This document shows, piece by piece, positions 1,202 to 29,503 of a stretch of DNA of 64,000 bases. This stretch comes from a virus (taxonomy: Duplodnaviria; Caudoviricetes), in IMG/VR virus record IMGVR_UViG_3300017707_000735, positions 12,322 through 76,321 of that record. One strand, given 5' to 3'. The position numbers were made by a program, and so were the translations under genes. The notes beneath the pieces were generated by a model, which was given only the letters and a program-made list of their open reading frames with translations, ran no database searches and was not told the DNA's origin. Numbering within the stretch: the stretch's first letter is position 1; each line of letters starts with the position of its first letter.

Positions 1202-2275
1202 ATGGCAAAGATGGCATGCGCTCAATGTGGTGGCGCAAAAAGAATGCAAGATGGAGGAACTGCTTCTAAGAAAGCAATAAGACAAGGTATGCGTGCAGTA
1301 AAAAAAGCAGACCGTCAGGATAAGCGTTACATGAATAAATATGAAAAACAAAAAGCTGAAGAACTTATGAAATCTAAAAGATTCCAAAAAGGTGGTATGA
1401 CTGGTATTATTGGTATGCCTAAATATGGTAATAATCCAAATACTCAAGAAGGACGTATGCTTAAGAAGGGCGGCTCTGCTGCATCTAAAGGTTGTCCTGA
1501 TGGATATTACTGGACTATTGATGGTTGTCAACCAAAGTATTCTGGTTATAAAGGACCATTATCATCTATTGGTGCTAAATTAGGTGTTGGTTCTGGAATT
1601 GCTGCGGGCATTGGTATAGCTGCAAAAGCTATTAGTGATAGAAAGAAAAGAAAAGCAGCAGAGAAAGAAGAATCAATGAAGTTGGTTAACGATGCTAAAA
1701 AAATCAAAGACAAGTTGGCTCCTAAAAAACATGGGGGTCTTGCTAAAGCTGATTCTGGTATGCAGGTAAAACGTAATATCACTAGACCTCTTCCTCCTAA
1801 TACATCTGGTGTAAGAAAGAAATACGCTAATGGTGGAGTAACACAATCATTTGCTCAAAACCGTGCTGTAATGGCGTCATGTAAAAATGGAATGGTTAGA
1901 GATGCTGGTGGTAAATGTGTTATGGAACGTAAGATGTCCAAAGGTGGTTTAGCAAAAGCACAAACTGGTACAACTGTACCGGCAGGAACTGTGGTAAAAG
2001 GAGGTAAGGTCTGGAATGGTAAAGGATACAATCCTGCCCCTGTAAATCCAGCACCTGCTAATACTGTTCCTGTAGGAACTGTTATCAACGATGGCAGAAT
2101 CTGGAATGGAAAAGGTTATGATCCAGCTCCGGTAAAAGGAAAAAGAGGTGGTACTAAAATGGCTAAAGGAGGTATGACCAAAGCAAAGAAGTTTGCTGCA
2201 CTAGCTCCACCATATAACAAAGCTACAGCTGCTGATAGAATTGCAGGCGCTAAGAAGAACTCAAGAAAAAAATAA
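1202..2275 (+). CDS. Basic modular protein with about 8 xxxGG motifs; putative internal virion protein
   Basis: 357 aa. Contains MQDGG, FQKGG, LKKGG, KKHGG, YANGG, MSKGG, KRGG and MAKGG, a Gly-rich hydrophobic stretch LGVGSGIAAGIGIAA, and an internal tandem repeat. Confidence 0.8.
   Translation: MAKMACAQCGGAKRMQDGGTASKKAIRQGMRAVKKADRQDKRYMNKYEKQKAEELMKSKRFQKGGMTGIIGMPKYGNNPNTQEGRMLKKGGSAASKGCPDGYYWTIDGCQPKYSGYKGPLSSIGAKLGVGSGIAAGIGIAAKAISDRKKRKAAEKEESMKLVNDAKKIKDKLAPKKHGGLAKADSGMQVKRNITRPLPPNTSGVRKKYANGGVTQSFAQNRAVMASCKNGMVRDAGGKCVMERKMSKGGLAKAQTGTTVPAGTVVKGGKVWNGKGYNPAPVNPAPANTVPVGTVINDGRIWNGKGYDPAPVKGKRGGTKMAKGGMTKAKKFAALAPPYNKATAADRIAGAKKNSRKK
1973..2134 (+). repeat. Tandem duplication (90-nt period) encoding TVPxGTVxxxGxxWNGKGYxPAPV twice
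   Basis: TVPAGTVVKGGKVWNGKGYNPAPV versus TVPVGTVINDGRIWNGKGYDPAPV. Confidence 0.9.
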
Positions 2276-2282
2276 TACTGTT

Positions 2283-3047: not shown

Positions 3048-3052
3048 TTGAG

Positions 3053-10942: not shown

Positions 10943-10983
10943 AATATGTCGCAGGTTGTTGGTTTCTGTGGCTGACAAGTGGA

Positions 10984-11013: not shown

Positions 11014-11025
11014 ATATTTAGTATA

Positions 11026-11058: not shown

Positions 11059-11068
11059 TAAGTATAGC

Positions 11069-13362: not shown

Positions 13363-16300
13363 ATGGCTAAAGAATCACAAGGTATTGATCAAAATCAATT
13401 AAACACTTTCATCAAAGGTCTTAATAAGGACCTTGATCCGTCATTTGTATCTGAAGGTATGTGGACGCATGCGCGTAATGCTACTAACAATACAAGAGAA
13501 GGAGATGCAGGAAGCTTATCCAATGAGCCTTCTAACATCTACTGTGGACAAGTTGCTGCTGATATTACAGGATCAAAATTTATTATTGGTGCTATACATT
13601 TGTTTAGTGACAAGTGGATTCTCTTTACAGCAGTACATCTGAATGACACATCTAACACAGTGGTGGGTTGTGAGATTGGATTGTATGAAGAAGAACTTTG
13701 TAAGTACAGACCTATTGTTCAAGACAACTGTCTCAAGTTCAGTAAATGGAATTTGATTACAGGAGCAGCAAGAAAAGTTAATGATTGCTCTTGGCAAGTA
13801 TACTTTGCTGACTCTAATAATCCAGATAGAGTAATTAATGTGGGAGATCCAAACACTTGGCCGCCAGAAGGGTATCAGTGGATGGGTAATAATCAATACT
13901 CTAATGGACCAAATACAATTCAATGGCCAGGTGTAGCATGGAAACAATTGTGTCATACTGATGAGGGATGTCAACAAACTGAACCTGGAGTATGGCCAGC
14001 TGGTTGTCCAGGAGTTAATGCATGTATCTCTTGCGATGACTATCCTGAACTAGACTGTGATCAATTAAGATTAGCAAGACTTGTGCAGACACCCTGCATA
14101 CATGTATCTCCAGGTAAAGCTGGTGGGAATCTTAGAAATGGTTCTTACATGGCATTGGTAGCATATTCAATTGAAGGTGTGAAAGTTACTGACTGGTATT
14201 CACCAAGTAATGTTCAACCTATTTGGTATACTAATGAAACTTCAGGAGCTTTAGAAATTGATCTTACAGTAGACCAAGATAACTTTGATGAGTTCATACT
14301 AGTTATTGTAGCTACAGTAAATCAAGCTGCTGTTGCAAAACAAGTTGGTATTTATTCAACAAGTACAAACAAGATCTACATTGATCAGATTAAAGAAGAT
14401 ATTCCGGCATATCCACTAGAGCAATTGCCTTTACAGAATCCGGTGTATGAAACATCAGATCAGATTGTAGAGGTAAACAATTACTTGTTGAGAGTTGGAC
14501 CAACTACTAAGTTTGATTTTAACTACCAGCCATTAGCTAATCTTATTCAGACTAACTGGGTATCTGTAGAATATCCTTCTGACTATTATACTAAAGGAGG
14601 TTACAAACCAAGTTACTTAAGAGATGAAGTATATACTTTCTTTATTAGATGGATATACAATACAGGTGATAAATCTGCAGCATATCATATTCCAGGAAGA
14701 CCAGCTAAGAGTGATTTTGTTGAACCATGTACTCTACAAGAATTAGCTGAAACAGATATTGCTGTAGGTCCAAATACATTATTTGATCCTGAGAGAATCT
14801 TTGAAGTATACAATACTGCAACAGTTACAGAAACTCCTACTAACGAAGTACTCCCTGATGGGGGTGTAGTGGTGGCAAGAGGTGAAATGGCATATTGGGA
14901 ATCTACCGAGAGATATCCAGACAAACAACCGGAGATATGGAATCCTACCGCACACTGTTGGACAAATGAAACAACAGGTATGTATGATCTATGTGGTAAA
15001 CCAATCAGACATCATAAGTTTCCAGATACAGGTGTAGGGAATACAGGACAGGCATCTTTACTATCTCACTTTAGAAAAAACACAACCAACGGAGACACCT
15101 ATATCAGAATACTAGGTGTAGAGTTTGGCAATATTATTTACCCAAAAGATAATAACGGTCAAGACATACCAGGTATAGTAGGTTATGAAATCTTAAGAGG
15201 TTCAAGAGAAGGTAATAAGTCTATTGTTGCTAAGGGTATGTTGAATAACATGCGTCCTTATAACATCAATGGACAGCAGACAGATAATCCAAACAGAAGA
15301 AGAGGTCTATATCCTAACCATCCATTTAATACAATCAAACCTGCTAACCCGCAGAATAGCCAGCAGTATGGTGTATTAAACCCAGGTAACCAGATCAATG
15401 ACCCTTATATTAAAGTTATTGATGAGGAAGGTGAAAGACAGAATGTAAATTTAGGTGACATGCCTAAAAACATCATGACTTTCCATTCACCAGATACTAA
15501 CTTTAAAAACCCATACATATCAACACCAGAGTTGAAGATCTACGGTAATCTCCGTGGTGTAGCTACTAACAACTTTGTGGAACCGGAGAAACATCCACAA
15601 CACAAACTGATTAGTAACCAAGCAGCCTACACAGCATTCCAAGGTGGTGCTGTTGAAGCTATCATATCTCAAATTGGTAAACAAAGTACTAGAACTTCAG
15701 GTGCTGGTTACACAAGAAAGTTTGGACCAGACTATACACAAGAAGAAATTGGTGGAGGTAGTGGTGACATGAATTTCAATTTCTTTGGTGCTTGGTCTCC
15801 TGTGTTTGGTTCTCAAACAGGAAGTGGTAGCGGTAACTGGACAGACTTAGAAGGCAATGATGGAAATACAGAAGAAGATGAGTACACAGAGAATGGTGAA
15901 GATACGGATCCTGACGGTGCACAGAATACAGGCGACTTTATAGATGGGCCACTAGCTGACTTTAATAATGATTTTACAGCATGGAGTGGTTTTAATGAAG
16001 CATGGGGCAACGGTGACTCACTAGCTGATATCTATGACAGATTTAACAATGAGGGTGGATTCTTCCGTGGTGGTTATTATACAGCACCATCTGGTGATAT
16101 GGAGTTATCAAAATTCCAGTACTTCAAAGATTCACCTTTACAAACTGCATTATCTTTAGTAGGTGTATTAAATCCATTGTTGTACTATTTCTCTGAAGGA
16201 GCTACAATCACATTAGATATAATCTATGCGTTGTTACCATTTAGACAATACGCTTTGCAATTGCAAGCACATGGTTTCTATGATGTGTTTGTTGGGCAGG

Positions 16301-18948
16301 CATGTAACACAGACTTTAGATTTAAGATTGAAGATTCTTTTTACTTGAAAGATTCAGTTCAGGATGCTAAGCCTTACTTTGATGGAGAGCAAAAATTCTA
16401 CAGAATTAATAACCTCAAGAGACAAACAACTTTTGTTGTTAGAACTGTAGATGGGGATGGAAATAATACCGGACCTGATTATATTACAGATACAACATCT
16501 ATTACTGGTTATGCTGATACATCTCTAGTAACCGTAGGAACGGCAATTAATAATCAGTTGGCACCAGCACCGTCCGCGGCTGTGCCAGGTAACTTGTTTA
16601 AGAATGATCATAACAATGATACTTTTAATACAGCTATAGCAAGTCACTATGCTGGATTAAAATACAGAATTGTAAATCAGTATGGTCAGCTGGATTCAAT
16701 CAAACTGATTCCAATCACACCATGTGAACAGACTATTGGGGACATAGATGAAACTATAACAAGTACATTCTGTACAGGGTACACTGAATACAATGTACCT
16801 TACCTCTATCAGTTAAAGCAAAAAGTGCTGCCTAAGACAATATCATTGTTTAATGGAGATACATATATCAATAGATACACAGAAAAGAATAGTATGTTCT
16901 TCTTCTATGATTGGTTGTATGATCAGCCTGATGGTATTGAGTATAATTACTTTAACCGTCAAATGTTGCCTGAGCCAAGATTCTGGATGAACTCAGCAAG
17001 ATATGAGGTGAGTACTTTGTTTACAGATCCATCAACTTGGTTTACTAACCTTAACGGTATCATGCCAGGTACAGGAGTATTACCAAGAGGATTCTATAAT
17101 CTAGACCATGGACCACCAACAGCAACTGCATGGTTAAGCTTCTTGTTCCCACAAGGATATAATTATTCTAATGACAACTCTGGAGATACACCAGGTATAT
17201 TTGGAGTAAAAGATTCTTACTTCTATTTAGCTACATCAGCTATTAGAGACTTCTTTGTGGAGAGTGATGTTATAGTAGACTTTAGAATTGCCGGGGATGA
17301 ACAGTGGCAGAAGTTTTACAATCCTTATGAGTATACGGATCTAGGTAGTTTATTTAACATGAATCCTGATATTATTCAGAGAGGTAACTACTACAGATAT
17401 GATTACTCATTGAGTATCTCAAAACTATTTACTCAGTACTTTAGTCAGGGTAACTTACAGTCAAGATACTACAGTCCTTCTGTAGCTAAGCTTTGCTATA
17501 CGTATTATCCAAACAGGATCTTGTATTCTTTACCACAGAATGATGAGTCATCCATTGATTCATGGTCTTTATTCTTGACTAACAATTACAAAGACTTTGT
17601 TGATAATATATCTGGAGTTAAGAACTTTGCTAAGACGGGTATTTTTATAACATTTAAAAACTCAAGCCCTTTAGCTTTCCAAGGAATAGATCAAATTGAG
17701 ACAACTTCAGGAACTAAAGTTACTTTAGGAGATGGTGGTTTGTTTGCACAAACACCACAAGCTATTGTTATTGCTGATAAGCCATATGAGTATGGTTCAT
17801 CACAAAGTAGTAGAAGTGTTATGTCAACACCGGCAGGCTTGTTCTATGTATCTCAAAACCAAGGAAAGATCTTTACTTATGCTGACGGTCTTACAGAGAT
17901 ATCACAGCAGGGTCTTAAATGGTGGTTCAGTATATTCTTGCCATACAAGATTCTAGAAGACTTCCCAGACTATCCGCATATTGACAACCCGGTAGCGGCA
18001 GTAGGATGCCAGTCTATCTATGACAATCAGAACTCTATCATATACTTCTCTAAAAAGGACTATAAGCTTAAAGAAGAGTTTCAAGGAAGAATCTATTATG
18101 ATGCTGTAACTAATGTATTTAGATTAGATAAGGCACAAGTATACTTAGGTGACCCTAACTTCTTTGATGATGCTTCTTGGACTATCAGTTATGATCCTAA
18201 GTCACAGTTCTTTATTTCATTCCATGACTGGCACCCAGATATGGTGATCCCTAATAAGATTACTTTCCTGAGTACAAAGTTTGGTACACTGTGGAAACAC
18301 AATACTTCATGTTCATCTTACTGTACTTTCTATGGGGAAGATAAACCATTTGAGGTAGAGTTCCCTATTGTCAGTGGACAGACTGTGGTAACGAAAAGAA
18401 GTACAGAGTATATTCTAGAATGTTATAGACGTTCTGACTATAACTGTGTTGATCAGTTCCAAGTATTGGATTACAACTTTGACCAGGCTGTAGTGTTTAA
18501 TGCAGAGCAGGTTTCCGGGTATCTGAATCTAAACATATTCCCAAAGAATAACGTCACACTTAGCTTACAGTATCCACAGGTAAATCTAAACTCTATTGAC
18601 ATCTTATTCTCTAAAGAAGAGAATAAATATAGATTCAATCAGTTCTGGGATATTACAAAAGACCGTGGTGAGTTCCCTATTGGTTCTAACTATCCACCAA
18701 CTGGGCCGGTGGTACCAGGAACAACTGTATTGCAAGGACCATATGCTCAAGAGTTCTTATGGTTAACTGAACCTAATGGTTATATCAAATCATTAAACCC
18801 AGCAAATCTGGACTACCAGAAGCCTGAGCTGCAAAGAAAAAAATTCAGACATTATTTAAATTTCTTAAATTTATCCAAGTCTGTCTCAGGTAATACTAAC
18901 ATGGTACTCAAGATAGTAAACAGTAAGAATATAATTTCTCCAAGATAA
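13363..18948 (+). CDS. Muzzle / tail stabilisation protein (P22 gp10-like)
   Basis: 1861 aa. N-terminal FIKGLNKD..W..ARN motif, YxRDEVYxF, GYEILRG, WTISY..SFHDW.P and C-terminal NKFR-like motifs typical of crAss-like stabilisers. Confidence 0.8.
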   Translation: MAKESQGIDQNQLNTFIKGLNKDLDPSFVSEGMWTHARNATNNTREGDAGSLSNEPSNIYCGQVAADITGSKFIIGAIHLFSDKWILFTAVHLNDTSNTVVGCEIGLYEEELCKYRPIVQDNCLKFSKWNLITGAARKVNDCSWQVYFADSNNPDRVINVGDPNTWPPEGYQWMGNNQYSNGPNTIQWPGVAWKQLCHTDEGCQQTEPGVWPAGCPGVNACISCDDYPELDCDQLRLARLVQTPCIHVSPGKAGGNLRNGSYMALVAYSIEGVKVTDWYSPSNVQPIWYTNETSGALEIDLTVDQDNFDEFILVIVATVNQAAVAKQVGIYSTSTNKIYIDQIKEDIPAYPLEQLPLQNPVYETSDQIVEVNNYLLRVGPTTKFDFNYQPLANLIQTNWVSVEYPSDYYTKGGYKPSYLRDEVYTFFIRWIYNTGDKSAAYHIPGRPAKSDFVEPCTLQELAETDIAVGPNTLFDPERIFEVYNTATVTETPTNEVLPDGGVVVARGEMAYWESTERYPDKQPEIWNPTAHCWTNETTGMYDLCGKPIRHHKFPDTGVGNTGQASLLSHFRKNTTNGDTYIRILGVEFGNIIYPKDNNGQDIPGIVGYEILRGSREGNKSIVAKGMLNNMRPYNINGQQTDNPNRRRGLYPNHPFNTIKPANPQNSQQYGVLNPGNQINDPYIKVIDEEGERQNVNLGDMPKNIMTFHSPDTNFKNPYISTPELKIYGNLRGVATNNFVEPEKHPQHKLISNQAAYTAFQGGAVEAIISQIGKQSTRTSGAGYTRKFGPDYTQEEIGGGSGDMNFNFFGAWSPVFGSQTGSGSGNWTDLEGNDGNTEEDEYTENGEDTDPDGAQNTGDFIDGPLADFNNDFTAWSGFNEAWGNGDSLADIYDRFNNEGGFFRGGYYTAPSGDMELSKFQYFKDSPLQTALSLVGVLNPLLYYFSEGATITLDIIYALLPFRQYALQLQAHGFYDVFVGQACNTDFRFKIEDSFYLKDSVQDAKPYFDGEQKFYRINNLKRQTTFVVRTVDGDGNNTGPDYITDTTSITGYADTSLVTVGTAINNQLAPAPSAAVPGNLFKNDHNNDTFNTAIASHYAGLKYRIVNQYGQLDSIKLIPITPCEQTIGDIDETITSTFCTGYTEYNVPYLYQLKQKVLPKTISLFNGDTYINRYTEKNSMFFFYDWLYDQPDGIEYNYFNRQMLPEPRFWMNSARYEVSTLFTDPSTWFTNLNGIMPGTGVLPRGFYNLDHGPPTATAWLSFLFPQGYNYSNDNSGDTPGIFGVKDSYFYLATSAIRDFFVESDVIVDFRIAGDEQWQKFYNPYEYTDLGSLFNMNPDIIQRGNYYRYDYSLSISKLFTQYFSQGNLQSRYYSPSVAKLCYTYYPNRILYSLPQNDESSIDSWSLFLTNNYKDFVDNISGVKNFAKTGIFITFKNSSPLAFQGIDQIETTSGTKVTLGDGGLFAQTPQAIVIADKPYEYGSSQSSRSVMSTPAGLFYVSQNQGKIFTYADGLTEISQQGLKWWFSIFLPYKILEDFPDYPHIDNPVAAVGCQSIYDNQNSIIYFSKKDYKLKEEFQGRIYYDAVTNVFRLDKAQVYLGDPNFFDDASWTISYDPKSQFFISFHDWHPDMVIPNKITFLSTKFGTLWKHNTSCSSYCTFYGEDKPFEVEFPIVSGQTVVTKRSTEYILECYRRSDYNCVDQFQVLDYNFDQAVVFNAEQVSGYLNLNIFPKNNVTLSLQYPQVNLNSIDILFSKEENKYRFNQFWDITKDRGEFPIGSNYPPTGPVVPGTTVLQGPYAQEFLWLTEPNGYIKSLNPANLDYQKPELQRKKFRHYLNFLNLSKSVSGNTNMVLKIVNSKNIISPR

Positions 18949-21353
18949 TGTATAATAAGCGCTCCTTATCTAAAGATACTAAAGCTTCTAAAGCTCCTAA
19001 GTCTATATCTAAACCTAGATATATTATTACAGATCCTATGGGTCAGTGGAAACACCCGGGTAAGAACACTAGAATACCAAGTAGTGATATTACGATGAAA
19101 GGTGTTCCTTATCCCGTGTTAGGAGTAGGCTCTAACGGTCAGAAACAAATGATGTATCCTGGACAAGAGTATACATTCCCTGGAGCTGATTATGTAGATG
19201 AGTATCCGCAGATGCGTAAGGGAGGTGGTCTAAAGTCTAAGAAGTATTCAAGAGACTTAGAAGCTACTAACCAAGTATTCCATGAGTCACCTTTGTTTAA
19301 GAAGAAGAAGTCTAAGAAGAAGAAGATCTATAATCCAAAGGCTAAGTATTATCAAGATGGAGGTACACCATATAACTACAATCCGTTTGTATCTACTGAA
19401 CCAGAAGTTCCAGAACAACCACAACAGTTTACACCAATAAGAACTGAGAATGATCCGGAGGACTATGATCAATTCTTGAACTACTCACAGACAGCTCCAG
19501 AAAACAGAAGACCTACTGAAGGATATACTTATGGTGACCCTAATGATTATGACCACTATGGTATGTGGGATGCATTAGGAAAACCTAAAGATTTTAATCA
19601 GGCTCTTGAGATGAATCCAGACTGGACTCCAGATCCTTATGATGGCTCTTATCACGGCTTCAGTGTTAATCCTAACACAGGAGTATTTCTTAAATCAGGT
19701 AAACCTGGATTCAAACCTGGGGATACTACTTGGATGGAAGTAGCAGGACATTATATGAGTCCAAGAGCTGATATGGATACACCTGTCTATGATCCAGAGA
19801 TGGGTAGATTCAAATATGTTCCTAATGAGAACTATATAGAAACAGAACTTACACCAGAAGAAATACAGCAGTATAGAGATGGTGGGTACATAGTAGAAGA
19901 GTTAAATGACTATAAAGCAGGAGGCTCTTTACTTACTAAGAAAGTAACATGTAAAAAATGCGGTTGGGAGTGGGATGCTGCTGATGGTGGTGATGATGTT
20001 ACTACATGTCACAAGTGCGGTGGTCAAGGATTAGTGCATGCACAGAAAGGTGGTACAAAACCTAAGTCTGAATCTAAACCTGATTTAGGAAAACAAGTTT
20101 ATACCTATGAAGATAGACCAGAAGCCAAGTATAAGAAAGACTCAAAAGGCAACTGGCATATTATGTTACCATCTACACACGGTAAGTATGTTCCTATTAA
20201 AGATCCAGATAAGAAAAGATCAGGAGAACTTAATGAGAAAGCTAAACCTGTAAAACCACCACAGTGGCAACAGGATAAAAAGAAGTATGGGAAAGACAAG
20301 GTAGAATGGTATGAAAGTTACAATCCAAATGACTGGTTCCTGAATGACTATTCAAAGTATAGCTCATACAACTCTGCTTTTAGAAACGCTAGAGAATCCG
20401 GTGAAAAGGAATTCTTATACAAGGGTGAAAGATATAATACTAAACTAGTAGACAAGAAACATTCAGATAGATACTGGGATAGTAAGAAATTTGTAGAAGA
20501 GTATTACAAAAACCAACCTTTAACACCGGGTGATTTACTAGACTTAAAAGATGCTTACATACAAAAAAAGCATGGAACAAACTGGTATGACTATTATAAT
20601 AATGTAGTGATGAATGATCCTATAAATAAAGACTACAATAAATGGAATAAAACAAGATATGAGGAAATGCAAGATTCACTAGATATGTTAGACCCAAACA
20701 ATCTTCCTACTGATGATCCTGATTTCTTGAAGTTTGCTCAAAAAAATAAGTACAAGACTCAGTTAAATGCACTAAAGAAACCTACTTATTTTTCAATAAC
20801 AGACTATAAACCTTCTGATATGTCAGAAGATGGTTACTGGGATGCTATGAAAAATAAAATGTTCATGACTACAAAAGCAGATCCTGGTCAACTTAATACA
20901 ACCTTTGTACATGAGTTAAGTCATAAAGCTGATGATTATGATATTTATAGTAAAGTACCAGAACACAATACAAAAGAATGGCAAAAGACTTCTTGGGCAG
21001 AAGGATGGGATCAAGACAAATATGACTATGTATCAAATCCTAGTGAGATAGAAGCAAGAAAACTATCTACGCTTTATTGGTTTAAAGAACATGGATGGCC
21101 GTACCAACCAGGAAAAATTAGAGAAGAAGGTTTAGATAGATTATATGACGCAAAACTTAATGACAAGATCCCTTATGATATAGATCAGTTGTTGGATTTT
21201 TATGGTAATCAATATGATGATTTATTAAGATACCTTAATAGTGATTATACTGAAAAAAGAGAGTTAGGTGGAAGCATAGGAGATGAAGTAGATTTAACTC
21301 CAGAGCAAGAAGCACATTTAAGAAGACTAGGATACAAACTTGAAAGAATATAA
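18948..21353 (+). CDS. Modular putative virion/cargo protein with a Zn ribbon and a C-terminal zincin (HELSH)
   Basis: 801 aa. Modules separated by MRKGG, YQDGG, YKAGG, AQKGG and RELGG. CKKC..CHKC ribbon. FVHELSH (20910-20924) plus a distal EIEAR. Confidence 0.75.
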   Translation: MYNKRSLSKDTKASKAPKSISKPRYIITDPMGQWKHPGKNTRIPSSDITMKGVPYPVLGVGSNGQKQMMYPGQEYTFPGADYVDEYPQMRKGGGLKSKKYSRDLEATNQVFHESPLFKKKKSKKKKIYNPKAKYYQDGGTPYNYNPFVSTEPEVPEQPQQFTPIRTENDPEDYDQFLNYSQTAPENRRPTEGYTYGDPNDYDHYGMWDALGKPKDFNQALEMNPDWTPDPYDGSYHGFSVNPNTGVFLKSGKPGFKPGDTTWMEVAGHYMSPRADMDTPVYDPEMGRFKYVPNENYIETELTPEEIQQYRDGGYIVEELNDYKAGGSLLTKKVTCKKCGWEWDAADGGDDVTTCHKCGGQGLVHAQKGGTKPKSESKPDLGKQVYTYEDRPEAKYKKDSKGNWHIMLPSTHGKYVPIKDPDKKRSGELNEKAKPVKPPQWQQDKKKYGKDKVEWYESYNPNDWFLNDYSKYSSYNSAFRNARESGEKEFLYKGERYNTKLVDKKHSDRYWDSKKFVEEYYKNQPLTPGDLLDLKDAYIQKKHGTNWYDYYNNVVMNDPINKDYNKWNKTRYEEMQDSLDMLDPNNLPTDDPDFLKFAQKNKYKTQLNALKKPTYFSITDYKPSDMSEDGYWDAMKNKMFMTTKADPGQLNTTFVHELSHKADDYDIYSKVPEHNTKEWQKTSWAEGWDQDKYDYVSNPSEIEARKLSTLYWFKEHGWPYQPGKIREEGLDRLYDAKLNDKIPYDIDQLLDFYGNQYDDLLRYLNSDYTEKRELGGSIGDEVDLTPEQEAHLRRLGYKLERI
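20100..20252 (+). repeat. 51-codon module, copy 1 (paralogous to 22486-22638)
   Basis: YTYEDRPEAKYKKDSKGNWHIMLPSTHGKYVPIKDPDKKRSGELNEKAKPV. Confidence 0.95.
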
Positions 21354-21354: not shown

Positions 21355-24156
21355 ATGGCAAAGTTCAAGATAACAGGATTACCTAAAGCACAAATAGGTG
21401 GTAAGACAGCTACCAGTTTATTGTTTTCACCATATGAACAAGGGATGTTTAGCAATAGCTTGCATTCAATTGGTGGTGCAGATCCTTCATTTATTTTAGG
21501 TGCTGAAAGATCTAACCTGTTTCCAATATGGGGACACAACAATGGTGTGCGTTCATCTTTATCAGGACAAGTACAGATTCCTTATGCTATGAATCAGATA
21601 CCTGGAGTTAAAGGAAGATGGACAAGTGAGTATTCACCAAATGCCGGAAAGTCTCCTGTTCAATTTACAACCACAGGACAGCTTGAAGGTGGATACAACC
21701 CAGATCAAGGATTTAATGCAAGTATAATGGGATGGCCTCATGTATGGGGATCTACTGTAGATGTATCAAGATGGAGAAATCCTGAAAAATATTATGCAGG
21801 TGCTGTCCGTGCAGGTATTGGTCCTCAGCTTGGTGGATCTTATATGTCAGGAATGATGAACTCATCAGGACCAAATTATATTAGCGGTACAGATCAAATG
21901 AATACTAATAAAGGAAGTGTTCATATTGGTGGTAGAGGTTATGTTGAGTATACGCCTACTGACTGGTTAAAATTAAGACTTGATGCACAGGGAATGTTTG
22001 ACCCTCTTACAAAAAAAGTAGCAGAGGGAACTGACGCAGGAAATGCAGCTGAAACAGAAAATGTTAATCTAAAGTTTTCTCCAGGAGTACAACTTACAGC
22101 TACAGTTCCTATTAAAGCTTTAGCAAGTAATAAGAAGAAAGCTTCAGAAGAGAAGGTTAAAATGGATGCTGTTAAAGCTGATGATAAAAATATCATGGTT
22201 GAAGCACCTGTTATGACAGGACCTGGAATAGATTGGGAGTACAGACAAAAACAACAAAGTACTGGAGTACCAGTAGGACACTTGCCAGGATATGAACCTG
22301 AAACAGGAAGACAACTCACTGAAGCAGAATTAATGCAAAGATACGGTCAAGGACCACGTTTAACAAAAGGTGGAACAGCTAATGATATCTATCTTGATCT
22401 TGATGATGATGAAATAGAACAGTACAGAAACGCAGGTTACATAGTAGAGGATTTACCAGAAGCACAGAAGGGTGGTGAACAGACATATACCTATGCTGAC
22501 AGACCTGAAGCTACTTATAAAAAAGATGCTAAGGGTAATTGGTTAATCAGTCTTCCATCAACTGATGGAAAGTATGTACCTATCAAAGATCCATCAGGTA
22601 AGCGTGCAGGAGAGTTAAATGAAAAAGCTAAGCCTGTTGAGAAGCCTACTCTTATGACAAAGGCATACAGCTCTGTAAAAGACTTCAACCGTTTGCCAGA
22701 AGCAGACAAAAAAGCTAGAGCATCTATGTATGCATTTAATGAAAAAATGCGAAACTCCGGAATGTATTATGGGGCTAATGGATGGCAAAGACCTATGGCA
22801 AGTGGAGCTGCTCAATCTGCTGACTGGTTCTGGACACTTCCGATAGCATTACCTGCTATAACACAAACACTAGGAGGTATCGGAGCTATGTCATTACCCG
22901 GTATGGCGTCTATACCTGGAGCAACTGTAGGTAACCTTGTTAATTCTGGGTTTATTGCTAGTAGCTTAATGGGTGCTCCTGGAAATGTTATGGATTGGTA
23001 TAATGTAATACAAGGTAAAAAAGATTGGAAGGATGCGGCAATGGATAGTGCAGATATAGCATTAGGGTTTATTGGTTCTGGTTCTGGATGGAAATCACTA
23101 ATACAAGATGCAAAAACATTGAAAGCCCCATCTAAAATAGTAAGCAAAACTCGTAGCACTGTGGGTAATGTAATAAAGCCAGGTGTATTATCAGCAAAAC
23201 CAAATCAGTACTCAATTGCAGGTCAACGTGGTGCTGCAGGTAAAACTGGGTTAGATGCATCTCATGTAGAAGACGTAAGAAAAAAAGCTATTGCTAGATT
23301 ACAGTCAGATGACTATCTAAAAAAGAGAATGGCTAATACTGGAGAAACTGAAGAACAGGTTAGAGCGGATGTGAAAAAAATAATTTCTGAAGCTGAGGAT
23401 GCAAAGTATAATTTGAATGCATATATTAGCACAGAAGGAGTGCAGACACCAAAAGGATTGCAAAACTTATGGAGATATCCTACAGTAGATATATCAAAAA
23501 ATGCAGAGAATCCTATAACTACTTTGATTCATGAGAATAATCACTTGTATTCTCCTGCTGGTTACTCACAACATCTAGGACGTATGGTTCAGGGTCGAGG
23601 TAATCCAAATATTGCTTCAATCCCTTTTGGTAAAAAGAGAGGTGTTTATGCTAATTATCCTCAACTAGGTGTAACGGATGACATTGGTGAGTATGAAGCA
23701 AGAGAATGGGAACAACAAGTTAGACACTTGAACGCAAGAGATCAAATTATTTCAGCAAATAATCTAGCAGAAGATGCTAAAGTAACACCAGAAATGGTAG
23801 AGAAGTTTGCAGGTGATTGGTTTAAACGTATGAAGACTGAAGGTGCTGTTGGAGAAGATTATGATCTTATTTGGAATTCTGAACTAAGGAACGTAAGAGA
23901 AACTTTGGCTAAAGAAAAAGGTTATGCAAATACTGCAGAACTTGAGAAAAATTTAACAGAAGCTGATAAAGCAGCATTCCTAGCAGAGGTTAGAAAGAGA
24001 TTTTCAGAAAAAGTTGCTGGTGTATTAAACAATGCATGGATGGGTGTTCCTGCTGTAATAGGTGCCGGTGCATTAGGTGCAGGAGCTACAGACGGTGAGT
24101 TTAAAAAAGGTGGTTTCCCAAAGAATATAGGTAAACTTAAAAAGTTTATCAGATAA
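21355..24156 (+). CDS. Modular putative virion/cargo protein with a beta-rich N-terminal domain and a zincin (HENNH)
   Basis: ATG 21355 preferred over TTG 21340. Contains AQIGG, LTKGG, AQKGG and FKKGG motifs, LIHENNH (23530-23544) and a C-terminal GAGALGAGA segment. Confidence 0.75.
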   Translation: MAKFKITGLPKAQIGGKTATSLLFSPYEQGMFSNSLHSIGGADPSFILGAERSNLFPIWGHNNGVRSSLSGQVQIPYAMNQIPGVKGRWTSEYSPNAGKSPVQFTTTGQLEGGYNPDQGFNASIMGWPHVWGSTVDVSRWRNPEKYYAGAVRAGIGPQLGGSYMSGMMNSSGPNYISGTDQMNTNKGSVHIGGRGYVEYTPTDWLKLRLDAQGMFDPLTKKVAEGTDAGNAAETENVNLKFSPGVQLTATVPIKALASNKKKASEEKVKMDAVKADDKNIMVEAPVMTGPGIDWEYRQKQQSTGVPVGHLPGYEPETGRQLTEAELMQRYGQGPRLTKGGTANDIYLDLDDDEIEQYRNAGYIVEDLPEAQKGGEQTYTYADRPEATYKKDAKGNWLISLPSTDGKYVPIKDPSGKRAGELNEKAKPVEKPTLMTKAYSSVKDFNRLPEADKKARASMYAFNEKMRNSGMYYGANGWQRPMASGAAQSADWFWTLPIALPAITQTLGGIGAMSLPGMASIPGATVGNLVNSGFIASSLMGAPGNVMDWYNVIQGKKDWKDAAMDSADIALGFIGSGSGWKSLIQDAKTLKAPSKIVSKTRSTVGNVIKPGVLSAKPNQYSIAGQRGAAGKTGLDASHVEDVRKKAIARLQSDDYLKKRMANTGETEEQVRADVKKIISEAEDAKYNLNAYISTEGVQTPKGLQNLWRYPTVDISKNAENPITTLIHENNHLYSPAGYSQHLGRMVQGRGNPNIASIPFGKKRGVYANYPQLGVTDDIGEYEAREWEQQVRHLNARDQIISANNLAEDAKVTPEMVEKFAGDWFKRMKTEGAVGEDYDLIWNSELRNVRETLAKEKGYANTAELEKNLTEADKAAFLAEVRKRFSEKVAGVLNNAWMGVPAVIGAGALGAGATDGEFKKGGFPKNIGKLKKFIR
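22486..22638 (+). repeat. 51-codon module, copy 2 (paralogous to 20100-20252)
   Basis: YTYADRPEATYKKDAKGNWLISLPSTDGKYVPIKDPSGKRAGELNEKAKPV. Confidence 0.95.
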
Positions 24157-24193: not shown

Positions 24194-27100
24194 ATGAAAA
24201 GAAAAGTAAGAGTTTACAAAGCAGAAGACGGACAAGGTCAATACCATAACCAAATGTCCCAGTTCTTAAAAAGAGCTCAGATGGGTATGGAACAACAAGC
24301 TCAACAGCCAGACATGCAACAAATTGTAATGCAAGTTGCTGGAATGCTAATGCCACCACCAGATGGTCAGGGAGCAGATGCAGAACAAGTGTATCAGTCT
24401 TTGATTCAATCATATGGTGAAGCGGCAGCAACTCAGATTATTAATGTTGCTGTAGGTATGGTACAACAATCTTCAGGTTCTGAACAAGCTGCCGGTCAAG
24501 AGATGGCACAAGAAGAAGAGGAGTCTGTAGATGATCTTACTATGCAAGAAGAACTTATTAGAGAAGAGCGGGAACGTCAGCAAGAACAAAGAGATGCTGA
24601 GTACATGGCTGAAGATGACGAGTTCATGTATGATTTGTTGTATGGTGATGAAGAAGCTCAACAAGAAGAACAGCCTGAAGCTAAACATGGTGGTGCTCAT
24701 CATAAAAAGTTTGTAAAGAAAGCAATGAAACTTGCTAGAAAACAAATGGGTGATGCCGGCAACGGTCAAGGTAAAAACAAAGCAGACATTTTTGATGGGG
24801 CTATGAAGAGATCAGAAGACTTCACCAACAATCTTAAAAATGAAGCTACCTTATCTTTATTAGAAAAGCAGTTTAAGAATATGTCACAAGCTGCACCTCA
24901 AATGAATGCAGGACAGCAGTTTGCATATGGAGGATCACAGTTCGGTGGGATGACTGGATATGGTCTAGATAGATTTGTATATGGTGGTTATGATCCGTCT
25001 GTACCCGATTTAACAGAGGCCATGTATGGTTATCAAACCGGTGGTATGATTGCTATCAATGATAAAGATGGTAACAGAAGATATGTGACTCAAGAAGAAG
25101 CTGACAACTGGAACAATGCTATTAAAGATGATCCTGATATGTTATTGTCAGACTTATCATTCAAGAGTGAAAGTCCTATGAATGATCCTAACTATAAAAT
25201 GTGGAGTGATCTTAAGGACAAAGGTGTAAATGTAGGTGATTACCGTCAGGGAATAAACTATAAGCAGTTTGCTAACTCTGGAAATAAAAACACAAACTAT
25301 AATTATGTTGAGAAACCATACTCAACAGATAATATCTGGGATGCTCTTATTCCTAATAATAGAATCTTTGGTAAGAAGTATACTATGTATGGTCCTATGA
25401 ATCATTTAGGACTACCTTTTACAGGGCCATTCAATCCAATGAGTATGATGAATGGGTTTGATGTAGATAAACAAAGATTAGGTTTTGGTCATAAGCGTTA
25501 TACATTTACACCAAAAGGTGCATCATCCGCTAGCGGTACCGGAATGGGTACAGGAGCAGGTAGTGGTGCAGGTTTTGTTCCAGGTCCTGGGCAAGCAGTA
25601 GATGCTATGGGCAAACCAGTTACATCTCAGAAACAACTTGAGATGTCATACTTAAATCCAGCATACTTACGTCAGTCAGGTAAAGAGTTAAAAGATCTTA
25701 ACTTACATCCTTATAGCAAACAAGAAATGAGAAATGCTAGACAGGACTTAAGACAGTATGACAGAGCTGGCAGAAAAATGGATAGGAAAAGTGATTGGGC
25801 TCAAGATAAATTTGGAAATAATGGTCAAAAACAAAAGGGTGACTTTTGGCCAAGATTAGCTGGATTCTTAAGAACAGCAGAGAAAGCTAGAGATGGTTTA
25901 CAAACTTTCCAAGGTAACGTGAATGGATCTTCTGTAAATAATCAAGAGACTCCTATTGAATTTAAACCTAGAACAGCAAAAGAAGTTTGGGATAAATATG
26001 AGCCAGAACTTAGAAAACAATGGGGTAGTAAGATTGGTCAAGAATCAGAATTAGAAAAAGGTACACCAAGTTTTCGAGTTGATGAGGAAAACTATTTCAA
26101 TGGGGAGAACTTTTTGAATATGGCTAACCCTATGCTTAAAGGTTTGACTAACCTGTTTAACAGAGGTGAAAAGAAAAACTTCTTTGGTTATCAAAACAAT
26201 ACTTCAGATGATCTAGCTGATGTAAATGAGCAAAGATTTCATGGTAACTACAATCCTTTGTCAGGTGATTTTAGAGAAGATTTACAAGGTCAGAATTGGC
26301 AAAGTAAATATGGTGGTGTACCTCATATGAAAATGGGTGGACCTAAAGGTAGAACTGGGCAACAGGTAGATTACTCATTAGGTATTTTCCCTACAGCTAT
26401 GGGAGGCTCAGACATCAACCAGTATATTGGAAAAAAAAAGCCAGAGATATCAAGTACACTAAAACCCGTACCAAGAGATAAAGCAAATCTAGAAGCTGAG
26501 AAAGGTGAAACTGCATACGGAGATCTTAATGGAGATGGATTCCCAGAACACTATGAGATTGGCGGCAAGCGTCACTACCAAGGTGGTACACCATTAGATC
26601 TTCCAGATGATACATTTATCTTTAGTGACACTAGATCTATGAGAATTAGCGACCCTAAGATTCTTAAGATGTTTGGTAAGTCACCTAAGAAAGGTGGTTA
26701 TACACCTGCAGAACTTGCTAAGCAATATGATATCAATGCATACCGTAAGATTCTTGATGATCCAGATTCAGATGTAGTAGATAGAAAGACTGCAGAGCAA
26801 ATGATTAAGAACTTCAACATTAAACTTGGAGCTCTGGCACTTGCACAGGAATCTAAGAAAGGTTTCCCTCAAGGTATTCCAGTTGTGGCAAAACCATATA
26901 TGGAGACTATGGGAATCAGTGAAGAAGATATCTTACCTAAAGAAGAAGAAGCACAACAAATGGCTCAACAAATGATGGGTCAACAAGGAATGCCTCAAGG
27001 TGAACAACAAGCTATGATACCGGAAGAGCAAATGGCAATGGCTTCACAAGAAGGTATGATGGCTAGCCCAGAAGAAATGGGAATGAGTCCTGAAGGTATG

Positions 27101-29503
27101 ATGAGATATGGTGGTATGCGTAGATTGAGAAGAGCTCAAGAAGGTATGGCACAAGGTCAACCATCTCCTGAAGAAATGGCTATGATGCAACAACAGCAAC
27201 AACAAGGTGGTGGTGATGAGATGGCGCAAGTAATGCAACAGGTACAACAAGCTCTTCAACAAGGAGCACAACCTGAAGAAGTTGCTGCGCAGTTAATGCA
27301 AAACCAAATGCCGCCAGAAGCTATAATGCAAATCTTTATGCAGATTGGCATACCACAAGAAGAAGCTGCGGGTATTATACAATCAGTAATACAGGGTGCT
27401 CAGCAAGCACCAATGGCTGCTTATGGAATGCAGATGGGGGGTTACGACATGCCTTTTGCACAAGAAGGTACGTTTGTAATGCCTAATCTTGGTGATCCTT
27501 TAGAAATTGAAAAGCGCAATCAAGAATGGGCTACAAGACTGGAGAACAATCCTATTAAACTTAATGTTGCTAAAGATGATACAAAAAGTGATTTTACTGA
27601 TTGGAGAGGTGACACATATCATGCTTCAAAACATGGTTATGCTGATGAGCCATGGTTTAATATGGGTCTAACTCATGATCAATTAAGAAATTTCTACCAG
27701 CATCGTGGTGATAATATGTTACCAATTAATCATCCTAACAACACTAACTATTTTTGGGACCCGTCTAAGATGGCTTATGGAGGATCACTTGATAGATACC
27801 AAACTAAAGGTGAGGTAAAACAAAAAGTATATACTGAAGATAACTTACCTGAAGGTGCTGTTATTGTAGAAAAATATACACGCGGAAAAAAACCAGGTGA
27901 CTTTGAACTACAAGAAGATGGTACTTATAGAAAGGTGACTAAGTATGACCTTAAACCTTCTGCATCAAGTGCAACTAAGCAGCAAACTGCAGCTGATTTT
28001 GCCGCACAGTCTGAAGAAAATAAAAAACTACTAGAGCAGGCTAATGCAATTATTGCAAGAGAAATTGGTAAAGGAACTATTGAAGGTGATGCGGATGGCG
28101 GTGATATTAAACTACTAGGTAATCTTAGCTTACCATTCAATGAAAGAATCATTTTAAGTAAAGCACTTAACTCTAATAAAGATTTTGGTACTGATAAGTT
28201 TAAGGTAACTAAACAAAGTGCTACCACAGGTTATTCTCAAAAAAGTAGCAGAGGTGACTATAAAGGTACCGGATCATTTGTAGCAGGATTTACTCCAGAA
28301 GATTATGAGAAGCGCTACGTATATGAGCAGTTAAAAGGAATGGGTGCAGATGATGAAACAGCATTTGCTGAAATTGATAAAATTTATTCTGACCCTAAAC
28401 AAAAAGCAGGAGCAAGAAGAGAGTATCTAAACTTCTTAGGTGTTACAGCACCAGCAGATGATGCTGAGTTACTAGATGCTAACTTCTATAAGACACGTTA
28501 CAAAGATGTGACAACTGCTATGGAAAGATTGGATGAGAGTACGTTTAGAACATCTAAAGCTGGAGGTAATGACTTGATTTCAGGGTTTGACCACTTTGAT
28601 GCAATGGGTTTTGAATATAATCCAGAGTATGAGGCTGAACAACAAGAGCAAGAAGAAGAAGAAACTGATGAAGAAGGTGATGTTACAGAAGATGTAGAAG
28701 TACCTGTTCCTAAGTATGCACCATGGTGGTTGCAAGATACTATAAAAACAGCAGGAGCATTTGGTGATCTTATGGGTGTTAAGAAGTATTATCCTTGGGC
28801 GCCTAAGTACAATCCGTCAATTCCGGATCCAACATTCCTAGATCCTACAAGATCTATTGCTGCACAAAGTGAACAAGCAAGAATCCTTGGTGATACAATG
28901 TCTAAGATAACTCCTAGTTCTTCTATGGCGGCTTCTAGATTAGCTGGTCTACAAGGAGAGTTGGCTAAGGGTGCTGCAGACACTGCTAATCAATATGACA
29001 AAGCTAACGTAGAGATAGCAAATCAATTTGCACCTATGCAAGCTGAGATGTCTAACAAAGCTCAGGAATACAATCTTGGTCAGACTAAAGCACTATATGA
29101 TGCTAATACGTTGATGAACCAGCAGTATGATAACTCTAAGCGTGCTATGAAGCAGAACTTGCTTAACCAGTACACTAATGCTATCACTAACCGTTGGAAG
29201 ACAGATGCTATGAATCAGTTGTATCCTCAGTACGCTGTTGACCCAGCAACTGGTGGTAGACTTGATTTCAAAGGAGGTAAAAAACAGAAACCTACAGTTG
29301 CTAAATCATATGGTGACTATTACAATGAAGCATTTGAGATTACTGGTGACAGTGATGCATCAGCTAAATATGCATTGCTTGCTTGGAAACAAAGTCAAGG
29401 TGAAGATATTGGTGGAGGTGCTGAAGCTGTAATGAGCATGTATCAAAAGAATGGCGGTACCTTCACAATAGGACCAGGAATGCTTCCACCGTTTATACTG
29501 TAA
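24194..29503 (+). CDS. Large putative internal virion (cargo) protein, Gln/Met-rich
   Basis: 1769 aa. Central ANLEAEKGE..IGGKRHYQGG..FIFSD domain recalled from crAss-like cargo proteins. Many xxYGG/MGG motifs plus Q/M-rich and acidic low-complexity tracts. Confidence 0.7.
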   Translation: MKRKVRVYKAEDGQGQYHNQMSQFLKRAQMGMEQQAQQPDMQQIVMQVAGMLMPPPDGQGADAEQVYQSLIQSYGEAAATQIINVAVGMVQQSSGSEQAAGQEMAQEEEESVDDLTMQEELIREERERQQEQRDAEYMAEDDEFMYDLLYGDEEAQQEEQPEAKHGGAHHKKFVKKAMKLARKQMGDAGNGQGKNKADIFDGAMKRSEDFTNNLKNEATLSLLEKQFKNMSQAAPQMNAGQQFAYGGSQFGGMTGYGLDRFVYGGYDPSVPDLTEAMYGYQTGGMIAINDKDGNRRYVTQEEADNWNNAIKDDPDMLLSDLSFKSESPMNDPNYKMWSDLKDKGVNVGDYRQGINYKQFANSGNKNTNYNYVEKPYSTDNIWDALIPNNRIFGKKYTMYGPMNHLGLPFTGPFNPMSMMNGFDVDKQRLGFGHKRYTFTPKGASSASGTGMGTGAGSGAGFVPGPGQAVDAMGKPVTSQKQLEMSYLNPAYLRQSGKELKDLNLHPYSKQEMRNARQDLRQYDRAGRKMDRKSDWAQDKFGNNGQKQKGDFWPRLAGFLRTAEKARDGLQTFQGNVNGSSVNNQETPIEFKPRTAKEVWDKYEPELRKQWGSKIGQESELEKGTPSFRVDEENYFNGENFLNMANPMLKGLTNLFNRGEKKNFFGYQNNTSDDLADVNEQRFHGNYNPLSGDFREDLQGQNWQSKYGGVPHMKMGGPKGRTGQQVDYSLGIFPTAMGGSDINQYIGKKKPEISSTLKPVPRDKANLEAEKGETAYGDLNGDGFPEHYEIGGKRHYQGGTPLDLPDDTFIFSDTRSMRISDPKILKMFGKSPKKGGYTPAELAKQYDINAYRKILDDPDSDVVDRKTAEQMIKNFNIKLGALALAQESKKGFPQGIPVVAKPYMETMGISEEDILPKEEEAQQMAQQMMGQQGMPQGEQQAMIPEEQMAMASQEGMMASPEEMGMSPEGMMRYGGMRRLRRAQEGMAQGQPSPEEMAMMQQQQQQGGGDEMAQVMQQVQQALQQGAQPEEVAAQLMQNQMPPEAIMQIFMQIGIPQEEAAGIIQSVIQGAQQAPMAAYGMQMGGYDMPFAQEGTFVMPNLGDPLEIEKRNQEWATRLENNPIKLNVAKDDTKSDFTDWRGDTYHASKHGYADEPWFNMGLTHDQLRNFYQHRGDNMLPINHPNNTNYFWDPSKMAYGGSLDRYQTKGEVKQKVYTEDNLPEGAVIVEKYTRGKKPGDFELQEDGTYRKVTKYDLKPSASSATKQQTAADFAAQSEENKKLLEQANAIIAREIGKGTIEGDADGGDIKLLGNLSLPFNERIILSKALNSNKDFGTDKFKVTKQSATTGYSQKSSRGDYKGTGSFVAGFTPEDYEKRYVYEQLKGMGADDETAFAEIDKIYSDPKQKAGARREYLNFLGVTAPADDAELLDANFYKTRYKDVTTAMERLDESTFRTSKAGGNDLISGFDHFDAMGFEYNPEYEAEQQEQEEEETDEEGDVTEDVEVPVPKYAPWWLQDTIKTAGAFGDLMGVKKYYPWAPKYNPSIPDPTFLDPTRSIAAQSEQARILGDTMSKITPSSSMAASRLAGLQGELAKGAADTANQYDKANVEIANQFAPMQAEMSNKAQEYNLGQTKALYDANTLMNQQYDNSKRAMKQNLLNQYTNAITNRWKTDAMNQLYPQYAVDPATGGRLDFKGGKKQKPTVAKSYGDYYNEAFEITGDSDASAKYALLAWKQSQGEDIGGGAEAVMSMYQKNGGTFTIGPGMLPPFIL

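Follow-up and report, generated by a model that had tools for sequence, protein, structure and literature searches.

How does a crassvirus load megadaltons of protein into its head and then inject it, when the assembly mechanisms of these phages are "yet to be established" (2023 review; PMC10136315)? This question gains a concrete handle from a short peptide, ending in two glycines, that recurs in putative internal virion proteins of a crAss-like phage (IMG/VR record IMGVR_UViG_3300017707_000735). The contig is 76.3 kb long and an estimated 64% complete; we analyzed a 64-kb stretch of it (64,000 nt, positions 12,322–76,321 of the record; denoted the window), which represents the structural module of a crAss-like phage of aquatic origin. 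The original prediction took the peptide to be either a polyprotein cleavage site or a packaging tag. We found that the Gly-Gly joint peptide is real and widespread, and it is apparently undescribed, since literature searches found no published description of it. Our leading explanation, to which we give somewhat less than an even chance, is that the cargo proteins of the phage are linked module to module by uncut joints, of which the motif is the core, and carry charged connectors at their ends.

The contig carries, in order, genes for the large terminase and the portal, then those for a Cys-free, 412-aa putative scaffold protein and for the major capsid protein (Pfam Crass_capsid). These are followed by an array of small lysine-rich proteins, the tail and ring genes, the muzzle gene, and seven large co-oriented genes whose largest product has 3,645 aa. 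In crAss001, the genes directly past the muzzle encode the packaged cargo proteins gp45 and gp46, both detected in virions, and subunits of the virion RNA polymerase (PMC10172136). Because the window genes that start at 18948, 21355, and 24194 hold the same position, we treated them as cargo genes (denoted +1, +2, and +3); by this synteny, their products would be packaged and ejected. Motifs were counted with a loose pattern ([MYFAL]xxGG) and a strict pattern ([MYFA][QK]xGG) in a focal set of seven proteins, namely, the small basic proteins past the capsid gene and the products of the three genes past the muzzle gene. The main features, in window coordinates, are as follows.

87..629, + strand: small basic protein of 180 aa, composed of an N-terminal extension, MKSGG (aa 85–89, nt 339–353), and a C-terminal DUF6321.
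1202..2275, + strand: basic Gly-rich protein of 357 aa with 7 motif copies (1.68 expected, p = 0.001).
13363..18948, + strand: muzzle protein (Pfam crAss_MUZ, 9.5e-29), used as anchor gene and negative control; no strict motifs.
18948..21353, + strand: cargo gene +1, 801 aa, a string of modules according to its AlphaFold 2 (AF2) model, homology breakpoints, and alignment.
21355..24156, + strand: cargo gene +2, an open reading frame (ORF) of 933 aa from ATG 21355, built of several modules.
21409..22110, + strand: ten-stranded beta domain of gene +2 (aa 19–252), outer-membrane-barrel-like, with a predicted local distance difference test score (pLDDT) of 80–94 in AF2.
24194..29503, + strand: cargo gene +3, 1,769 aa, with nine loose and four strict motif copies.

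The ATG at 21355, which sits 1 nt past the stop of gene +1, is the likely start of gene +2 because relatives begin MAKFKITG… (the mechanically called ORF starts at TTG 21340).

All of the pentapeptides named in the original prediction are present in their ORFs, together with the variants LAKAQTG and LAKADSG (both in 1202..2275) and RRAQEG; AQCGG, YRDGG, AADGG, and YEIGG had been missed. The seven copies in 1202..2275 are AQCGG, MQDGG, FQKGG, LKKGG, YANGG, MSKGG, and MAKGG. Gene +1 carries MRKGG, YQDGG, YKAGG, AQKGG, and RELGG, and gene +2 carries AQIGG, LTKGG, AQKGG, and FKKGG. Most copies fit the proposed [MYFAL] class, with RELGG and SKYGG falling outside it, and the motif is best written K-[M/Y/A/F]-[Q/K]-x-G-G. 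In focal proteins, the double glycine is typically preceded by K at −4, M/Y/A/F at −3, and Q/K at −2 and followed by T/S/M/Y; Gly-Gly dipeptides in nonfocal proteins have no such context. Two ORFs of the genome just upstream of the window also carry the motif (genome positions 10292–11290, with the clearest copies, and 12124–12405), as AKYQTGG (twice), AKYKMGG, ATYKTGG, and PKAQMGG.

Might such a peptide lack any specific function, being a by-product of Gly-rich composition or of a DNA-level recombination signal? The focal proteins are indeed Gly-rich (7%–14%), yet we consider this extremely improbable. The predicted enrichment over Gly background held: the loose pattern occurred 35 times in the focal proteins compared with 11.6 expected, a count reached by none of 2,000 composition-preserving shuffles, and 23 times outside them compared with 19.4 expected. 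For the strict pattern, the counts were 21 compared with 1.55 expected in the seven focal proteins and one compared with 1.6 expected in the remaining 20,500 residues. Since the strict pattern had been sharpened on the same data, we also trained a weight matrix on the small proteins alone, which separated Gly-Gly sites of the cargo proteins from other Gly-Gly only modestly (Mann–Whitney p = 0.014). Together with the distinct Gly-Gly context, the shuffles rule out a composition artifact. Codon usage of the motif glycines equals the genome background, so that selection acts on the peptide and not on the DNA, and this rules out a recombination signal at the DNA level. The information content of the motif is one-sided, with 0.55–0.87 bits at −3 to −1 compared with 0.16–0.34 past the Gly-Gly.

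We then looked at relatives, defined as 36 contigs anchored on the muzzle gene (37%–82% identity). The motif marks the same three post-muzzle genes in these relatives, which a functionless by-product would leave unexplained. The strict motif has a density of 3.70, 3.81, and 2.50 per 1,000 aa in genes +1, +2, and +3, respectively, compared with 0.25 in the muzzle, and it occurs once in ∼90,000 aa of the upstream tail and ring genes. This survey is the strongest independent confirmation of motif specificity. The claim that ring, muzzle, and fiber proteins lack the motif was borne out in both the window and the relatives.

The original prediction also placed the motif at module boundaries and near termini. 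Homology breakpoints, two AlphaFold models, and natural termini back this placement, and the idea of a junction fared equally well: in proteins at the crAss001 cargo position, the modules on either side of a motif are unrelated and can be swapped independently. The 801-aa product of gene +1 has 634 relatives at E ≤ 1e-5, nearly all of which cover it only in part. Their alignment ends peak at the second Gly (45 at offset 0), their alignment starts peak 3–5 residues upstream, and 27% of internal homology breakpoints lie within three residues of a motif (5.3% expected). Relatives with 77%–89% identical flanks differ by whole inserted modules that start past one motif and end with another. In a 44-sequence alignment of gene +1, motif glycines (G92, G138, G139, and G325) are, together with P170, the only near-invariant columns of this mosaic family, which again argues against a lack of function.

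The AF2 model of the gene +1 product, computed from that alignment, is a string of confident modules: a cupin-like domain (aa 25–91), aa 160–293, a zinc ribbon (aa 331–358), aa 376–437, and a zincin-like domain with the sequence HELSH (aa 464–768). The second Gly of the joints stands at aa 93, 139, 313, 326, 369, and 775. Segments with pLDDT <50 account for 17% of the chain and hold six of the seven motif Gly-Gly pairs; the remaining pair forms a turn past a helix. In a model of the first 380 residues of the gene +2 product, all three motifs lie in linkers with pLDDT <50 between confident modules. The motif is predicted from these models to lie in disordered linkers between folded modules.

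The modules themselves are diverse. Foldseek matches of the antiparallel beta domain in gene +2 are nearly all outer-membrane beta-barrels, including OmpA, porins, OmpG, NspA, and autotransporter beta-domains (best E 5e-5, with low TM-scores). This barrel-like domain has no signal peptide and may therefore form pores as one of the ejected components. The barrel cassette was found at seven different positions across proteins. Relatives of the gene +1 product carry differing effector domains at the same joints: SET (PF00856), ART-PolyVal (PF18760), ADP-ribosyl exotoxin-like (PF03496), glucosaminidase (PF01832), VanY (PF02557), phage lysozyme (PF00959), amidase (PF01510), and histone H1-like (PF07382) domains. 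A whole-chain Foldseek search with the 801-aa model gave no match at E ≤ 0.001.

Two modules of gene +1 deserve a separate comment. The cupin-like beta module (19020–19220, + strand; Z up to 5.5) is always N-terminal, and no other part of the gene is as widely conserved; it could dock behind the muzzle. The helical HELSH module (20337–21251, + strand; pLDDT ∼90) has weak fold matches (Z 3.8–4.4) with about a dozen HExxH metallopeptidases, of the M1, M13, M9, M34, and PPEP families. It and the HENNH module of gene +2 (HENNH at 23530–23544) are sporadic cassettes among relatives, and their assignment as putative zincins is weak.

A close published parallel is with polyvalent proteins, which are large packaged proteins with many effector domains, for which processing by zincin domains has been proposed (Iyer et al. 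2017, PMC5512222). The window proteins likewise are single chains of unrelated, freely recombining domains, as seen in the AF2 modules, the mosaic homologs, and the varying cassette positions. Their position past the muzzle suggests that they too may be delivered into the host with the DNA. On the other hand, the polyvalent protein paper describes no junction peptide such as that of the window proteins (the terms "glycine," "linker," and "crAss" have zero occurrences each; PMC5512222), and the polyvalent MPTase-PolyVal domain (PF18818) was not found here, where the HExxH modules are sporadic. Ejection-protein reviews note mosaicism without a junction signal.

The small basic proteins also contain a motif-bounded module. 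Members of the family share a conserved ∼60-residue module flanked by YKTGG and PKAQMGG, and 56 out of 120 end 5–9 residues past the last motif. The module is present in all three near-complete relatives; genes for free-standing modules begin just ahead of a decayed motif (YTTGK or TKSG). Motif density reaches 12.7 per 1,000 aa in these proteins, with tandem doublets such as KKGG-x3-KYQTGG. In 87..629, Pfam DUF6321 spans aa 99–178 (1.3e-19), and homology to cyanophage and pelagiphage proteins begins at aa 91–92, immediately past the Gly-Gly. A tblastn search of cultured phages gave no match to the small basic module and one weak match to the N-terminal module of gene +1. We noted an unlisted 55-aa gene upstream of the window (genome 11296–11463) that encodes the motif-bounded module of ORF 10292 on its own; the upstream motif of this copy has decayed to YTTGK, and its end reads …APKKC-stop. 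Many relatives of ORF 10292–11290 (P0121–P0240) end in a C-terminal Cys (…PKAKMGG-AMKRKSC-stop or …KGKKC-stop), and some have a hydrophobic N-terminal segment resembling a transmembrane helix.

Longer signatures at the N- and C-termini are built around the motif. In the relatives, cargo proteins have in common a C-signature of 24 residues, [D/E]-L-T-x-x-E-I-x-x-Φ-x-x-G(G)-Φ-x-V-E-E-L-stop. A profile hidden Markov model (HMM) built from natural C-termini detected 36 C-terminal and 35 internal copies in cargo ORFs and none in the muzzle or upstream ORFs; an earlier rigid regular expression had matched nothing internal. The signatures of genes +1 and +2, with the independent E-value (i-E) of the HMM match, are as follows.

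19836..19925, + strand: internal junction of gene +1; C-signature (aa 297–319: helix, YRDGG, acidic strand YIVEEL), then NDYKAGG (i-E 3.7e-11).
21279..21350, + strand: terminal C-signature of gene +1 (…DLTPEQEAHLRRLGYKLERI-stop), aa 778–801 (i-E 3.5e-07).
21355..21402, + strand: N-terminal signature of gene +2, MAKFKITG-LPKAQIGG; a basic strand, then the conserved cassette start.
22396..22476, + strand: internal junction of gene +2; C-signature (…EIEQYRNAGYIVEDL), directly followed by PEAQKGG (i-E 9.5e-07).

Internal C-signatures are followed by PEAQKGG, NDYKAGG, or SVPxLTKAQxG(G). The barrel cassette always starts with L-P-K-A-Q-x-G-(G/K), whatever lies upstream: the acidic strand of a C-signature, a plain Φ-x-x-G-G, or MAKFKITG at a natural N-terminus. 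Gene +2 has the layout of N-signature, beta-barrel-like module, internal C-signature with PEAQKGG, and later modules with HENNH, with FKKGG 17 residues before the C-terminal end. Gene +3 has an N-terminal leader (MKRKVRVYKA…FLKRAQMG, nt 24194–24286) and YQKNGG ahead of a hydrophobic C-terminus.

What is internal in one protein is terminal in another. Elements equivalent to the junction at 19836..19925 are natural C-termini in relatives, and in relative L019 the module matching the gene +2 junction has a natural stop right behind the strand. Several further natural C-termini of relatives align to internal junctions of other proteins, with the boundary behind the acidic strand, that is, 6–7 residues past one Gly-Gly and just ahead of the next motif. 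Among short free-standing relatives (contigs ≥10 kb), 22 out of 36 end in the acidic strand and none at the Gly-Gly; among longer relatives, none out of 118 end at the Gly-Gly. When two genes of one phage were required to align to a single fused gene elsewhere, no case emerged among 36 loci; a relaxed search found natural C-termini at internal junctions but just one natural N-terminus.

The double glycine depends on what follows it. It was present in 161 of the 186 internal C-signatures (87%) but in only 36 of the 137 natural C-terminal ones (26%; odds ratio 18, p = 3.5e-29; 323 unique copies, of related sequences). Copies without Gly-Gly carry a single Gly, as does the terminal C-signature of gene +1. 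The double Gly thus appears to be needed where a module follows, suggesting a function at the joint (bending or cutting) and arguing against a self-sufficient docking tag.

A docking or cargo-loading tag would bind the procapsid interior (capsid protein, scaffold, or portal) and package any carrier, with multiple copies giving avidity. The motif is confined to proteins that should be carried in the particle. Like binding motifs, it combines conservation with disorder in the isolated chain; it also stands near both termini and is repeated as tandem doublets in the small basic proteins at the high density given above. A known case is the cargo-loading peptides of encapsulins, short disordered Gly-containing termini of cargo that load an HK97-fold shell without cleavage; a capsid-targeting sequence, in the part that escapes cleavage, would be another model. 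The window motif differs from these in consensus and in lying mainly between modules. A tag should persist at termini and in free-standing modules, which is precisely where the Gly-Gly relaxes. Moreover, the motif is missing from the four largest cargo-block proteins (nt 29567–58573), although their crAss001 counterparts are packaged, and the docked, resolved parts of crAss001 gp45 are modules, with a motif at their edge at most. We conclude that a universal packaging tag, as originally proposed, is not supported and that docking in general is quite unlikely.

We give still less credence to a DNA-contact mini-motif, in which K-Y-Q-x-G-G would be a repeated DNA-binding hook similar to SPKK or the AT-hook, and the copies in cargo proteins would reflect packing on DNA. 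The motif is densest in very basic proteins adjoining the capsid gene, and basic tails follow the last motif. However, this leaves unexplained the breakpoints and module boundaries at the motif, the acidic C-signature with the same core, and the asymmetry between internal and terminal Gly-Gly, and no likeness to a known DNA-binding motif was found. Overall, we consider it very improbable.

Charge distinguishes the gene ends as well. An acidic-strand gene end followed by a basic-strand gene start (M-K-K-K-V-R-I-Y-K or M-A-K-F-K-I-T) was observed at 22 out of 22 nonredundant junctions and at none of the 143 upstream of the muzzle. The net charge at these junctions is −2.8 at the C-end and +4.9 at the N-start, compared with −0.55 and +2.05 at other junctions. 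This co-occurrence, with the charges, is suggestive of end-to-end pairing between split cargo proteins.

Taking the joint reading, each module would be a separately folded unit (e.g., an outer-membrane-type beta-barrel, a zincin-like or cupin-like domain, or a zinc ribbon), linked to its neighbor through the short disordered peptide K-Φ-[Q/K]-x-G-G. The double Gly would let neighboring modules fold freely, dock at separate sites of the particle, and traverse the portal and tail channel in series, and the conserved residues ahead of it might be recognized at the protein level by some partner. The same peptide would form part of the end-pieces, a C-terminal "helix, G(G), acidic strand" (…LTxEEIxxYxxGG-YIVEEL) and an N-terminal "basic strand, LPKAQxGG." When a gene for several modules is split in two, the acidic strand of the upstream protein would pair with the basic strand of the downstream one, and the two proteins would behave as one chain. 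Since the joints are all alike, modules could be inserted, lost, and exchanged at them, which would account for the extreme mosaicism of the cargo proteins. We infer that the joints stay uncut and that they help serial ejection.

The cargo protein of crAss001 offers a comparison grounded in experiment. Gene +1, like the gene of crAss001 cargo protein C1 (gp45), lies directly 3′ of the muzzle gene. gp45 is packaged, and separate parts of it dock in the tail barrel and on the portal (Bayfield et al. 2023, PMC10172136; PDB 7QOG series). It has a motif of its own, A[Y/F]GG, with four copies (0.1 expected), and the other proteins of the virion module, 11,224 aa in all, contain no copy; the motif goes without mention in the structure paper (PMC10172136). 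In the published model, the portal-bound domain begins at A425 and runs on through F-G-G-W, and the helix bound to the barrel begins four residues past SAYGG-210; the gp45 motifs thus flank segments that dock at different sites within a protein handled by the authors as a single chain. In gp45, the aromatic residue stands at −1, unlike in the window motif, where it is at −3. The window cargo proteins also differ in having no detectable sequence homology to gp45: there was no Pfam match to crAss_CARG1 at E ≤ 0.01, no PDB sequence match, and no BLAST match to gp45 below E 0.12, nor was there sequence similarity to gp46. The 24-aa C-signature of this lineage is absent from crAss001; a look-alike at gp45 aa ∼583–603 was dropped, as the HMM gave nothing significant in 18 crAss001 proteins. 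The gel bands of crAss001 at 150, 270, and >300 kDa indicate that its giant proteins are intact; the text states no gp45 band, and none of the gp45 mass spectrometry peptides quoted (PMC10172136) spans a motif, so that they do not discriminate between cut and uncut.

The alternative that we took most seriously is cleavage, namely, that a maturation protease (of a novel fold, or a host enzyme) cuts past Φ-[Q/K]-x-G-G, freeing modules and small basic peptides in the head or after ejection and removing incorporation leaders and tails. Much of the motif is as one would expect from this. Conservation is one-sided and stops at the Gly-Gly, and the strict double Gly is typical of GG-specific proteases such as adenain, Ulp and deubiquitinating enzymes, PLpro, and C39. 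Gly-Gly is kept in internal copies and relaxed in terminal ones. N-terminal leaders of 10–32 aa end in AQxGG, and C-terminal tails extend 5–9 aa past the last motif, recalling the capsid-targeting leader of T4 and the scaffold tail of herpesviruses, both of which are removed by a protease. A cut at the Gly-Gly ahead of YIVEEL-PxAQxGG would give an N-end similar to the "strand, LPKAQxGG" arrangement of natural N-termini. As in adenovirus, basic proteins that probably associate with DNA would be among the substrates, and P1 DdrB provides a precedent for a processed, packaged polyvalent protein (PMC5512222).

The likeness to adenovirus can be examined residue by residue. Adenain cuts (M/I/L)-X-G-G|X in core and cement precursors. 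As at adenain sites, a hydrophobic residue precedes Gly-Gly in recurrent sites of internal virion proteins, including small basic ones; the sites are tandem, a few residues apart; and Gly-Gly occupies P2–P1, being invariant in our motif by definition. Unlike at adenain, Ulp, and C39 sites, the hydrophobic residue (M/Y/F/A) of the window motif is at P5, not P4, where Q/K is found instead. The capsid targeting sequence of T4 is a second point of reference; its site, L/I-x-E, is cut by the S77 prohead protease, which removes it. Short N-leaders on internal window proteins similarly end in a conserved short motif, but this is AQxGG and not L/I-x-E, and the window motif is mostly internal and repeated. 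DUF6321 of ORF 87 occurs also in T4-like cyanophage proteins, which at the equivalent boundary read …VSE-EAW… or …QNEG-AAW…, suggestive of a T4-type site but not clearly one.

The protease itself did not turn up. Searches of the contig and three 99%-complete relatives, with working controls, found no member of the Ulp-type C48 (CE clan; PF02902), HK97-type S78, ClpP, C39, or MPTase-PolyVal families; those for adenain C5 (PF00770) and T4 S77 (PF03420) gave no match, but their positive controls were likewise silent. The crAss001 structure paper (PMC10172136) and the 2023 review (PMC10136315) make no mention of a protease or of processing in Crassvirales. The zincin-like modules are poor candidates, as HExxH modules occur in only five of the 18 motif-bearing relatives, and the remaining relatives still hold 9–14 motifs. 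A packaged GG-specific cysteine protease is very unlikely because the head-interior proteins are nearly Cys-free. There is no Cys in the proteins starting at 21340, 24194, and 29567 or in the capsid protein and putative scaffold (window 18948–58573; genome 6270–9153), whereas tail and fiber proteins are Cys-rich, with up to 45 Cys. In the three giants, Cys is found mainly at the ends (…NCKL-stop; MAC… and …KCEL-stop; MGC…), the lone internal ones being C2329 (33004 protein) and C812 (51848 protein).

Several other observations argue against cutting. Pro at P1′ is only mildly depleted (19 compared with 27.9 expected), no natural protein ends at the Gly-Gly, the gp45 model is continuous through AFGG-W, and the giant cargo proteins of crAss001 are full size on gels. 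With no protease found, the hydrophobic residue in the P5 register, no Gly-Gly ends, and Pro tolerated, cleavage in its originally proposed form is not supported, and we regard cleavage in the broader sense as rather unlikely. If the joints were nevertheless cut, crassviruses would own an undiscovered maturation protease with adenovirus-like logic.

Several points also weigh against the uncut joint. A plain hinge could do without a strict double Gly and without conservation of the side chains at −4 to −1; one-sided information content is the usual look of a P-side-specific protease site; and Gly-Gly kept only where a module follows suits cutting as well as bending. The end strands have pLDDT <50 in the AF2 models, their putative pairing being deduced from co-occurrence and charge, and because the counted sequences are related, the p-values overstate independence. 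The link to crAss001 consists of gene position and a differently registered motif, without sequence homology, and for this lineage the evidence comes from sequence and predicted models.

Uncut joints, if this reading is correct, would constitute a design rule of nature by which protein cargo is linked into chains and delivered. The joint peptide defines module boundaries in otherwise unannotated proteins, would explain the extreme mosaicism of the cargo, and predicts which uncharacterized proteins ride in the particle. A bolder version is an "ejection train," in which any module flanked by Gly-Gly joints is accepted, the products of split genes are re-joined noncovalently by the acidic and basic strands, and the set, starting with the first protein past the muzzle, exits in gene order. 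We consider this version unlikely, though less so than docking; were it true, the joints would amount to a portable code of general use, by which virions could take on new effector modules.

Finally, we noted several features of neighboring genes. DUF6321 (aa 91–180 of 87–629) is common to more than 500 deposited phage genomes, with carriers among T4-like cyanophages, pelagiphages, a T7-like cyanopodovirus, and a Methylophilales phage. It is either free-standing or C-terminal in proteins of widely varying length; the copies shown mostly end in W-N/K-C-stop, with one ending in W-K-C-R and the Methylophilales copy extending beyond the domain. The product of 3757–4206 (+ strand) matched the PHROG families "starvation-inducible transcriptional regulator" and "DNA binding protein" (1.7e-18), and the equivalent block of tail genes in crAss001 holds the HU/IHF-like gene gp42. 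The last giant (51848 protein) has a LysM domain (Pfam, 9.4e-07; aa 1924–1962, nt 57617–57733, + strand) with a weak transglycosylase PHROG match nearby, which suggests a putative peptidoglycan-binding or -cutting part of the ejected protein.

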